Shown here: one piece after another, positions 3,001 through 6,000 of the stretch | Layout of the letters: the number at the start of each line of letters is the position of its first letter | How positions within the stretch are numbered: position 1 is the first letter of the stretch | Virus record (IMG/VR): IMGVR_UViG_2703718811_000015 | Location: 1 to 11,923 of that record | DNA from: a virus | Taxonomy: Duplodnaviria > Heunggongvirae > Uroviricota > Caudoviricetes | Direction: 5' to 3' (one strand) | Length of the DNA: 11,923 nucleotides | Program-made: the position numbers

Positions 3001-6000
3001 CAAATCCTCGCCATTCTCAAGCCAGTTGCGAACGATATCGCCAACCAGATCCGAACTCCCCATGATGGATGCGAGCTGCTCCTCGTTGTAATCCCGTCCA
3101 AATACGGTATTACTGGTTTTTACGCCAGCCAGATCAGGCATTGAGGGGGCAAAAAACTCGTAATCGCTCAGATCACCACGCTGAATAAGTTCACGAATCG
3201 TTGTAGGCTTGATCAGGCATTCGTAGTACTTCCCCATCCAGGCTGCGAACGGGGTACCGGAAAGTCCAAGAACCCTGATGTCTCTGTCCCGGATAACCTC
3301 AAGTAACGCACGACGCTTCATGTGTGCTTCATCGATGATCAGCAGATCGATGTTGTCAGGAAACTCACGACGGATCAGAGTGTCGGCACTGGCAATCTGA
3401 ATCAGTCGTGACGGGTCATAGTTAGGGTGATCACGCCATACAAAACTGATTTCTTCCCACGGCAAACCGTATTCGGTGAAACGTTCCGCTGTCTGGTTCA
3501 GCAGGATGGTGTACGGACAGACAAACATCACCCGCATACCACGTTCAACCATTCCGGCGGTGACGAATGCTGCAAGACCAGTTTTGCCAGAGCCAGTGGG
3601 TGCGTACATCAGGTACGTGCGATGCTGTTTCCACTGGTGCCGCAGCTGGTTTAAACCGCGCTCCTGAGCAAAGTTTGGGATTATTTTCAGCATGACGCCC
3701 CCTTACTACGTGATTTACCCGTTGCCGGGATCACGTCGATCTCATCGCAAACGTATTGATCCGGATTACGTGAACAGCGCAGAAGCACGATACCAGGAAT
3801 GCCGTATAGCTTGAGTCTGCGCAGTTTCAGTATTGAACGTGCCCGTGGTGACGCTCTGTCCACCTCGATCGCGCACCGTTCACCAGATGGGGCAACGACC
3901 ATGATATCGACGAATCCGCGCTTACCGTTGCCCATATCAACCAGATAATTACGTTCGATCGCCAGTCCGGCATCACGCAATTTGGCAGCCAGCACATAAT
4001 CAAACGTGACCTTGTCTTTTCCGGTGTAGAATTTCTTTCCGAGCAGGCTGATAACCACATGTTTGATGAACATGGTACTATTTCCACTGTGATAGTTAGC
4101 ATGATAATAATTTAGCCAGAAACTATCGCGTCCTATACAGTGATCTACCTAACCTATGGAGCTGCCTTTCTCTGGTAGTGCCCTTACGGGCACGGATGTT
4201 ACAGATCTGCCCCCTTACCCCCTTCTTAGTAAAATTTCAAGCGAAATAATTTCACGCGAAATTATTTCACAAGAAACAATACCTTATTGAGGTTTTACTC
4301 CTTCCGTACCGCTACTGGCGAAAGCATCCAGCCACGGCTGGCTCTCGCGTACTTCTGGACATACACCCGTAACCGGGTGTTGGCGCTCCGTCTTGCCCTG
4401 TTGCCCTTCCTGAACGATACAGGCTCCTTGTCCCACTCTTCCTGGTACACTCTCGCGTACTCTGCTGCAATTTTTACCCTGGTGGTCGGGTCTAGCTGTA
4501 ACAATTGCTCCTGTATCCAGTCCCGATCAGCATCGCTGTACTGATCGGGCATAACCGTTTTGATTTGCCTGTTCACTCACACCTCCGGTGCGCTGTGTGT
4601 CCAGGATTAATCATCGCCTCTTACGAACGCAGGGAACGGACGAACCTCTTCCGCCTCAACTGTGCCGTCATCAAAGGTTTTGACGTATATTTCTCGTCCG
4701 ACGAGAAGCGCTTTACTGATTGCACTCTGCGCCACGCCAAAGTCCTTAGCGGCTTTCTTTTGGCCGAACCTGTATACGTAATCAGCCAGGGTCTCTTTTT
4801 TCATCGCCATAACTGACTCCTTCAAAATGCCCATATCATTACGCACAGTTATTAAAATGTCAACACCGCAGATATTTCATTACATATAACCAAAGGTGAT
4901 ATGGTATGAACATGAAAAAGAAACCGTTAACCCCTGAGCAACTGGAAGACGCCAAGCGTCTGAAAAGTATTTTTAACGCTAAAAAGAAAGAGTTAGGCCT
5001 GTCGCAGGAATCATTAGCCTATGAATTAGGTGTTACCCAAAGCGCTGTTAATCAGCTAATGGCTGGCATCAACGCCATAAATGCCAGCCACGCAGCACAG
5101 CTTGCTAAGATACTGAATGTAAAGGTCGGAGATTTCAGTCCCAGCCTGGCAAAATCTATTGCAGAAATGGCGCTCGCAATTGAAGAGCCATTAACTCGTG
5201 TCCCCGCTTACGAATATCCGTTACTCTCCTGCGTACAAGCTGGCGCATTCTCAATGGATGATATTTCGTACACCGCAAAAGATGCGATTAAATGGATCTC
5301 CACCACCACAAAAGCCAGTGACAGGTCGTTCTGGCTGGAGGTCAAGGGGCATTCAATGACCGCACCGCAGGGTGGTAAACCCAGTTTCCCTGAAGGGATG
5401 CTGATACTCGTTGACCCTGAACGGGAGATTGAGGATGGCGATTTTTGCGTGGCCCGAATGAACGGCGATGAATTCACCTTCAAACGATTCATTCGTGAGA
5501 GCGGTAAAGCGTACCTGGAGCCGCTCAACCCACGATTCGACATGATTGAGTGTAACGAAAACTGCCAGTTTGTCGGAAAGGTCATCAAATCGCAGTGGAA
5601 TGATGAGACTTTTGATTGATCTCAAAGAGCGATTTAACATCCATCACGTCCTTTGGGGCGTGGAGGATGTCAACATCACTAATTTAACTAGCAAGGTCGT
5701 GCCGAAGGTGTTGTAATGAAAGATATTATTAATGTTTCAAGTCTGGACGACATTGAATCTTTGTTCGCAAGGTTAGATGGTGGCGAAGAGATAACTATCG
5801 ACAGGATCAAGTTAGACCTCTTCAATAATGTGAATTTTAAGATTTATGGTGATCCTTCTCGCTACAACGGAACACTTCCCTCTTCTCTGGCTCAGGGTTT
5901 ATGTGAGTTTCAGACTGAAATTTATAAAGTTTTCACACTGATAAAATATAAAACGGACAACCTTCAAAGGTTAACTGGTAAAGATAAAGATGAAGCAGAG

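Follow-up and report, generated by a model that had tools for sequence, protein, structure and literature searches.

Which function resides in the long noncoding interval that precedes the helicase and primase genes of Eru1-type Shiga toxin (Stx) phages? We addressed this question in an 11,923-nucleotide stretch of DNA (positions 1 to 11,923 of the IMG/VR virus record IMGVR_UViG_2703718811_000015; i.e., the window), which is the immunity and early region of a lambdoid-looking, Shiga-toxin-type Escherichia coli prophage. The interval (positions 4074 to 4294; i.e., the gap) lies between the genes for a 93-amino-acid (93-aa) and a 128-aa protein, and the genes 3' of it all abut or overlap in the open reading frame (ORF) map. 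A first-pass annotation had reported the gap, 15-bp repeats, an ATTTCA word, a C-rich tract, and a hairpin, all of which we recovered where it had placed them, and had proposed a replication origin or initiator-binding sites. Our analyses indicate that the gap is a real composite element that spans the whole interval. It is conserved, with fixed synteny, between genera and resembles neither a promoter nor a terminator nor any Rfam RNA. The comparative data fit best a replication origin region that serves the Eru1-type helicase-primase module in cis, which agrees with the earlier proposal in direction, if not in detail; on the basis of sequence, we regard this reading as about as apt to be right as wrong.

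The Eru1-type Stx phages include the phages of the 2011 O104:H4 and 2006 O103:H25 outbreaks, and toxin output follows phage replication. Their replication genes have been named just by position. The present result is a defined 220-bp candidate with separable parts (i.e., G-clusters, a mini-hairpin, a core, and two repeat zones). Fels-1 carries the same candidate, as do many prophages of Klebsiella, Yersinia, and Salmonella. We found no description of the composite element in the literature searched; a search on core sequence words returned nothing relevant, and the Eru1 papers, which treat genes only, do not mention an origin, an iteron, or an intergenic element (PMC8044961; PMC8951638).

Parts of the gap and their conservation

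Two AT-rich site clusters, Zone 1 (the repeats noticed at first; 4229 to 4270) and Zone 2 (4087 to 4129), flank a center of approximately 130 bp (Table 1). The 15-bp units R1 and R2 of Zone 1 are identical at 14 of 15 positions (Tandem Repeats Finder: period 15, 2.5 copies, score 62), and the ATTTCA word at 4234 to 4239 keeps the 15-bp spacing. The only difference between R1 and R2 is the center base of the internal palindrome, A in one and T in the other; each is therefore the exact reverse complement of the other, and together they form an 11-bp stem with a 4-nt loop. The label of tandem iterons given to them is therefore not retained: the units form one palindrome, and one of them is missing from a natural isolate (see below). 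The pair also belongs to a larger set, since GAAAYNATY is common to six operon-strand sites (R1 to R3 upstream and three at 4087 to 4129), and the repeat finder likewise pairs the first zone with the second (4106 to 4126). Zone 2 adjoins the start codon of the next gene and ends about 15 to 25 bp before it. The C-rich tract (CCCCCTTACCCCC; 4210 to 4222) belongs to the non-operon strand; on the operon strand, it reads as two G5 clusters. The core, the hairpin region, the G-cluster motif, and the exact repeat word were not found again elsewhere in the window.

We compared these features with 2,000 dinucleotide shuffles of the gap. Neither a 14/15 tandem at any period from 8 to 30 nor a perfect stem of at least 11 bp appeared in any shuffle (0/2,000 each), which puts both the repeat and the palindrome well outside chance. 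A perfect 6-bp stem with a 3- to 8-nt loop was obtained in 521 shuffles (26%); thus, the perfect GTGCCC hairpin at 4178 to 4193, present as first described, is not significant alone, and its support comes from the comparative data alone. In both the window gap and one Klebsiella-type gap, fold z-scores lay between -3.2 and -3.6 on either strand, and such equality is expected for DNA-level dyad symmetry. The A+T content in 40-nt windows was 68 to 72% in the repeat zones and 40 to 57% in the center, with no separate AT block.

Profile searches with the 128-aa protein detected homologs of 122 to 128 aa in Salmonella, Edwardsiella, Klebsiella, Yersinia, and Enterobacter. The order cI, cro, a gene for a protein of approximately 95 aa, a gap of 188 to 325 bp, a variable small gene, superfamily 2 (SF2) helicase, and primase is common to E. 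coli, Salmonella, Edwardsiella, Klebsiella, and Yersinia prophages, and was the same in all five contig look-ups and in phage Fels-1. Helicase relatives at 62 to 71% identity retain the order of 93-aa homolog, gap, small-gene slot, and helicase. On the operon strand, the gaps share a plan: a variable palindrome zone; two G-clusters (e.g., GGGGTAAGGGG, GGGGAGGGGG, or GGGGGGTAAGGGGGG); in most, a small hairpin (AGTGC-GAA-GCACT, containing GCGAAGC); GCTYTTCCAACAGAC; the core CATAGGTTAGGTAGATC, followed by ACTGTATAGG or TCGATCTA; in many gaps, a second hairpin and an A-run; and a second palindrome zone directly before the Shine-Dalgarno sequence. The repeat word varies by group (GAAAYNAT in E. coli and Salmonella; GTACYAG/CTRGTAC in both zones of Klebsiella-like phages).

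Protein homology alone yielded 56 unique upstream regions. The G-cluster pair was present in all 56, with a variable linker (TAA, CAA, TT, or A) and run length, and the core was present with at most three mismatches in 49. A GCG-N(1-2)-AGC or CCG-N(1-2)-AGG word lay between the G-clusters and the core in 34 of them. The words are GCGAAGC in the Klebsiella-type (K-type) relatives (GCGTAGC in one), CCGAAGG in contig L291, where the hairpin at the equivalent place is AGCC-CGAAG-GGCT, and CCGTAAGG in the window hairpin. When non-E. coli relatives were compared in pairs (150 comparisons), the median identity was 94% for the gap center, 76.5% for the adjacent coding sequence, and 63% and 58% for the two palindrome zones. 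A center that outlasts its neighbor genes, with faster-changing flanks, marks what is probably a cis-acting site composed of a constant part and a part for specificity or structure. The Klebsiella-type gaps additionally start with a stem-loop, CCGGGC-TTAAAGGT-GCCCGG (L209, about 970 to 995; also L050, L183, and L254), whose loop is conserved and whose stem covaries (GGGC/GCCC to GGTC/GACC, with several G.T pairs); the window has no counterpart of it. Scanning genome_contigs with a 14-mer of the core gave mostly chance matches in unrelated taxa and three useful loci (L081, L093, and L162), and a first protein scan of the same set gave no match.

Closer relatives reveal how the parts change. Of 5,426 complete E. 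coli genomes, 15 carry the gap at 91 to 98% identity, and none of these 15 has it annotated. The 27 distinct E. coli-type gaps fall into two types, i.e., type A (window-like) and type B (the P13374 group), which are about 100% identical across cro, the 93-aa gene, and the helicase gene and are separated by a sharp island of 28 to 68% identity from 4310 to 3680. Within this island the block at 4120 to 4168 holds 90% identity, and the small proteins in the slot are 37% identical; therefore, divergence of the gap flanks goes with divergence of the small gene, and the core within the gap stays constant. The type-B counterpart of the small hairpin is TGGCCTAGGCCA, without the mini-hairpin motif. 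Among type-A gaps, up to four sites have TAT changed to CAT, each at the same position within the motif. The R1/R2 center pair, A/T in the window, has become G/C in L012, L014, and L016, and L002 and L007 show the intermediate G.T state. Likewise, a Zone 2 stem pair has gone from A-T to G-C in L010, L013, and L016, and the intermediate G.T state is seen in L012, L014, and L015. The single A.C state is that of E. coli STEC1585 (L001, 3001 to 3206), where the right arm of Zone 2 reads AACCATC; in the same isolate, one 15-bp unit is exactly deleted relative to window positions 4241 to 4255, which is a copy-number variation of the repeat in nature. Some type-A copies on IMG/VR contigs are decaying: L013 and L015 have premature helicase stops, and the 128-aa gene has lost its ATG in L015 and is frameshifted in L016. 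The gap center is intact in all three.

The gap as a candidate replication origin

Several observations favor the origin reading: five genera share the position beside the helicase-primase genes; the center is more conserved than coding sequence and has variable repeat clusters on its flanks; relatives have RepL-like initiator genes and upstream repeats at the same position; the element stays with the helicase-primase genes where the small gene is missing (L254, L162, L093, and L327); and the hairpin loops C-GTAA-G, GCGAAGC, and CCGAAGG belong to a class of DNA mini-hairpins. In all relatives, the element lies where an iteron-type origin is expected, i.e., beside initiator or replication genes.

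The slot between the gap and the helicase gene either is empty or encodes a protein of the PD-(D/E)XK, NUMOD4, or RepL/HTH_36 winged-helix type. Five viral contigs were examined for their slots (L282, L285, L286, L291, and L327). L282 and L285 have RepL/HTH_36 matches (29.5 and 21.9 bits; cut-off, 20.3). The RepL-type relatives share AAGGTCAAGGTCAA-N-GGC-N-GATCGAGTC and carry two direct copies of 12- to 40-bp repeats just upstream, which are palindromic in L282 and L285. A RepL gene with upstream repeats is the classic initiator-plus-iteron layout, and this plasmid-type initiator with repeats at the gap position is, in our view, the strongest comparative argument that replication may start there. 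In L291, the slot gene encodes a NUMOD4 protein, and the gap carries GGGGGAAAGGGGG and TAGATCACTGTATGGGG in addition to its hairpin. L327, whose slot is empty, has as many as seven G-runs and a set of three direct repeats that resemble TAGACG. The gap leads directly to the helicase gene in L254 (a Klebsiella plasmid record), L093 (a Pseudescherichia prophage), and L162, all of which keep the G-clusters, the core, and GTAC palindromes; thus, the 128-aa gene is not needed for the element. The helicase-primase unit accepts interchangeable small DNA-binding proteins beside the element.

The mini-hairpin class has been reported at the origins of G4, St-1, and alpha3 and at RSF1010 ssiA, bound by the RepB' primase (PMC13037366). 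In the gaps, the corresponding C/G-closed GNA or GNNA words (GCGNAGC, GCGNNAGC, or CCGAAGG) were found on the operon strand only. In an origin of this kind, the conserved center (G-clusters, small hairpin, and core TAGGTTAGGTAGATC) would be read by conserved machinery, i.e., the phage SF2 helicase, the primase, the protein of approximately 95 aa, and/or host factors. The fast-evolving AT-rich clusters on either side (4229 to 4270 and 4087 to 4129) would be sites for a phage-specific DNA binder or, alternatively, hairpin-forming DNA that is easily extruded or melted. Transcription from pR would cross the element, as it does across ori-lambda.

Of the known systems, the IncQ plasmid RSF1010, whose oriV is served by the RepC initiator, RepA helicase, and RepB' primase, resembles the Eru1 module in having a self-contained set of replication proteins and an origin of repeats, a G+C-rich stretch, and hairpins, which the plasmid's primase reads as single strands. 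The ssiA mini-hairpin word CCGAAGG (PMC13037366) is the one present in L291, with GCGAAGC or CCGTAAGG at the equivalent place elsewhere. The likeness, which is one of sequence, has limits: the helicase here is an SF2 (RadD-like) enzyme and not a hexameric RepA, there are palindromic repeats instead of arrays of 20-bp direct iterons, there is one hairpin on one strand, and the Eru1 module lies inside a phage early operon.

The ori-lambda iterons, located in gene O, also lie in the pR operon, beside or within replication genes, are transcribed through from pR, and consist of repeats with internal dyad symmetry. In ori-lambda, the specificity part diverges between related phages and the remainder is conserved, and the gap behaves alike. 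Unlike ori-lambda, the element is intergenic, has 2.5 units of 15 bp in place of four 19-bp iterons, lacks an adjacent AT-rich block of about 40 bp, and contains G-clusters and a hairpin; moreover, O and P genes are absent here (PMC8044961).

A third comparison is with Staphylococcus aureus pathogenicity islands and other phage-inducible chromosomal islands. In their origins, iteron sets flank an AT-rich center beside pri-rep. The gap likewise has two repeat clusters around a central segment and adjoins primase and helicase genes; it differs in that its center is conserved and not AT-rich, the element is upstream of the genes, and the helicase is of another family.

Other results count against an origin. 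An array of at least three direct repeats (about 17 to 22 bp, in helical phase) is not present, there being 2.5 units of 15 bp; STEC1585 lacks one of these, which would make it dispensable there if that prophage is viable. No long AT-rich unwinding stretch occurs in the gap, no convincing DnaA box was seen there in a by-eye reading that used no tool, and GATC is not enriched (2 in the 221-bp gap versus 54 in 11.9 kb). The 128-aa and 93-aa proteins are unchanged between TAT- and CAT-type gaps, and no binder was identified. The compensatory stem changes fit RNA or single-strand structure equally well. The flank variation, moreover, may partly reflect drift or quasi-palindrome template switching, since a number of the most diverged copies belong to decaying prophages. 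Quasi-palindromes can self-correct by template switching, and this, together with the decay of the prophages, means that the stem changes are not clean evidence of selection.

Two neighboring proteins had been considered as binders of the repeats, and neither is supported in that role, given the TAT-to-CAT changes with both proteins unchanged and the gaps kept without the 128-aa gene. The 128-aa protein was initially favored as the specific repeat binder because of the divergence island; it then lost ground, being identical across TAT- and CAT-type gaps, a pseudogene in L016, and absent from L254, L162, L093, and L327, where repeats are kept. The 93-aa protein as CII or another regulator was rejected, there being no family or fold evidence for it.

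Competing explanations

The best-surviving alternative is that the gap is a structured leader or intercistronic region of the pR-operon mRNA, whose hairpins, G-run, and core act in the transcript for processing or stability, for translation control of the first replication gene, or for factor-independent antitermination. We consider it unlikely. The gap is part of an operon, and the strand whose stems can accommodate G.U pairs is the one represented in the transcript; stems are kept by two-sided changes, not only at the R1/R2 center and in Zone 2 (A-U to G-C) but also in type B (TTAGTTGC/GCAACTAA to TTAATTGC/GCAATTAA) and in the K-type stem (CCGGGC/GCCCGG to TTGGTC/GACCGA). The repeats change while the proteins do not. 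Scored against a reference structure with Watson-Crick pairs only, the ratios of wobble-type to A.C-type states were 41:24, 38:36, and 39:26 on the operon strand and 28:42, 38:42, and 30:37 on the other strand, but this bias is weak and is confounded by the G+T richness of the operon strand. The fold z-scores, being the same on both strands, also speak against an RNA, and a strand call for the structures was consequently rejected; RNAalifold on whole-gap alignments was spoiled by alignment gaps. Furthermore, the center is conserved in sequence (94%) and not just in its pairing, and the half-site words GAAAT and GTAC recur at several sites in both orientations.

The antitermination form of this alternative recalls lambda nut and HK022 put. 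The window hairpin has a GNRA loop (GUAA), as in those early-operon transcripts, and Eru1 phages are reported to have no N homolog (PMC8044961). In non-E. coli relatives, GCU(C/U)UUCCAACAG follows the hairpin and reads as boxA-like (GCTYTTCCAACAG, 3' of the hairpin). However, the window gap has no boxA (CGCTCTTA-like) word and thus no lambda-type nut site, the window has no second copy of the kind seen in a put or nut pair, and there is no terminator in or near the gap to be regulated (0 terminator-like sites in 3900 to 5000, and none conserved in relatives). Rfam gave nothing at gathering score in the window gap, where a 15.7-bit chance match was the only one at E up to 5, and no match in the gaps of five relatives. 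The suggestion that the small hairpin acts as a rho-dependent pause or terminator is not supported: the hairpin has no U-tract, and the operon RNA is G-rich and not the C-rich type expected of a rut site.

A transcription-primed (R-loop) phage origin is a doubtful but specific proposal. The pR transcripts over the two non-template G-clusters would be held there in a stable RNA-DNA hybrid, leaving the displaced strand free to fold into the GNA/GNNA mini-hairpin and recruit the phage Toprim primase; the RadD-like SF2 helicase, which also matches PriA and RecG weakly, would engage the loop, at times with help from the slot-encoded PD-(D/E)XK nuclease, NUMOD4, or RepL-like protein; and fork assembly would follow without DnaB delivery of the O/P type. 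Consistent with this, the G-runs and the mini-hairpin are both on the non-template strand, and the G-runs are kept while their linker is free, reaching seven in L327. Non-template-strand G-clusters are known to favor R-loop initiation (PMC4083084). The likeness to transcript-primed origins (i.e., ColE1 RNA II, T4 oriF and oriG, and mitochondrial conserved sequence block II) is entirely inferential and consists of non-template G-clusters downstream of a strong promoter, a hairpin on the would-be displaced strand, and a helicase weakly matching the D-/R-loop helicases PriA and RecG; unlike those origins, the window has just two G-runs and is not known to contain an RNase H or processing site. 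If true, this would be a replication-start mechanism undescribed for temperate enterobacterial phages.

Equally improbable, in our estimate, is an operator region without origin function, in which the palindromes would bind a dimeric protein that controls how the replication genes are transcribed, through a roadblock, for instance, or through looping between clusters about 130 to 190 bp apart. Two clusters of dyad-symmetric sites do flank the center, Zone 2 ends close to the start codon, and the repeats of the RepL-type relatives sit at the place of a Rep autoregulatory operator. Against this, there is no conserved promoter-like sequence in or near the gap (no conserved sigma-70 promoter in the window, type-B, or K-type gaps; no convincing sigma-54, sigma-32, or sigma-E promoter or IHF site by eye, without a tool), and the ultraconserved center is unexplained. 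The repeats also do not follow immunity type: L005 has another cI/cro with the same gap, and types A and B share cI/cro and differ in Zone 1. CI/Cro operators were rejected for this reason.

An oop-type antisense small RNA, read toward the 93-aa gene from a plus-strand promoter-like site (4081 to 4108; TTTCCA-16-GATAAT, 9 of 12 matching) in a position analogous to lambda pO/oop, is very improbable, given that two such matches compare with 1.6 expected by chance, that the match is not kept in type-B or K-type gaps, and that no plus-strand terminator follows the site in the window. The 44-aa plus-strand ATG ORF over the C-tract (4156 to 4290) is broken by 1- to 2-nt indels in relatives and was rejected as a gene, as was a 25-codon ORF over the G-run of some K-type gaps, for which the ATG is lacking in other gaps.

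Neighboring genes and other observations

The window module is the Eru1 replication unit (O104:H4 phage P13374, TL-2011c, and Fels-1), and NinB and NinG genes come after its primase gene. The names eru1A to eru1C refer to helicase, primase, and DUF1367 (Llarena et al. 2021, PMC8044961; Fagerlund et al. 2022, PMC8951638), and the same studies report that Eru1 phages have no O, P, N, CII, or CIII homologs and that lysogens of Eru1-type Stx phages are less stable than those of lambda-type Stx phages. The window helicase is 99% identical to that of Stx2a phage LC727856 (P13374/TL-2011c group); its best NCBIfam match is RadD, and its PriA and RecG matches are weak (E about 1e-3; far under the curated cut-offs).

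Table 1. Coordinates of the gap, its parts, and the surrounding genes in the window (MFE, minimum free energy)
Feature	Position	Strand	Remarks
Repeat R1, GTGAAATAATTTCGC, holding palindrome GAAAT-A-ATTTC	4256-4270	- (operon strand)	
Repeat R2, GTGAAATTATTTCGC	4241-4255	- (operon strand)	Precisely deleted in STEC1585
Partial third unit R3, TTGAAATTTTAC	4229-4240	-	Invariant in type-A relatives
R1/R2 perfect inverted repeat, 11-bp arms, 4-nt spacer	4243-4268	No strand	Arms 4243-4253 / 4258-4268; MFE structure
Two G5 clusters, GGGGGTAAGGGGG	4210-4222	- (operon / non-template strand)	
Small hairpin GTGCC-C[GTAA]G-GGCAC, GNNA loop closed by C-G	4178-4193	- (operon strand)	
Conserved core including TAGGTTAGGTAGATC (4142-4156) and CACTGTATAGG	4120-4168	-	90% identical to type B
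Zone 2, three more GAAAYNATY-type sites	4087-4129	-	7-bp inverted arms GATAGTT (4121-4127) / AACTATC (4091-4097)
LexA/S24-type CI	4906-5619	+	ORF map and family matches
Cro	4607-4846	-	Early operon
93-aa protein, phrog_852, cII position	4295-4576	-	Precedes gap in every variant
Whole intergenic element (gap)	4074-4294	-	ORF map; rightward (minus-strand) early operon
128-aa protein, PD-(D/E)XK nuclease fold, phrog_1347	3687-4073	-	Variable slot between gap and helicase gene
SF2 helicase (DEAD/ResIII, RadD-like), Eru1A	2173-3693	-	99% identical to helicase of LC727856
Primase, 323 aa (Zn ribbon, DUF7146, Toprim), Eru1B	1212-2183	-	Family matches

The 93-aa protein has an invariant motif (EPVSFR..N.AR..ANTRLR) and an Arg-rich C-half, and it occurs in every variant, including the RepL type. 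It has no family assignment, its structure model is a generic three-helix fold, and the RefSeq start of the phrog_852 protein is shorter (85 aa). It may be a component of the replication module rather than a CII analog.

The Klebsiella record L254 (NZ_CP076549.1; a linear record of 37,368 bp) is a prophage-like element with cI/cro, the gap, helicase, primase, and a Q-type antiterminator; its deposited description is that of a non-mobilizable plasmid, "plasmid p5" of Klebsiella pneumoniae. Twelve such Klebsiella records were matched. The element may be a phage-plasmid that replicates with an Eru1-type module. The cargo beside cI also varies, i.e., an Eco57I-type restriction-modification methylase domain protein in E. 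coli copies (L003/L004, 3141 to 3221) and a ParE toxin pair in Salmonella copies (L047/L048, 1035 to 1400).

Elsewhere in the window, Rfam gathering-level matches were obtained on the plus strand for isrK (7351 to 7426; 61.7 bits), C4 antisense RNA (7451 to 7538; 78.9 bits), and sRNA-Xcc1 (8368 to 8456; 65.9 bits). The isrK and C4 matches are neighbors, located upstream of or overlapping the start of a 261-aa ORF (7455 to 8240), and this locus looks like a C4/ant control region of the P1/P7 type.

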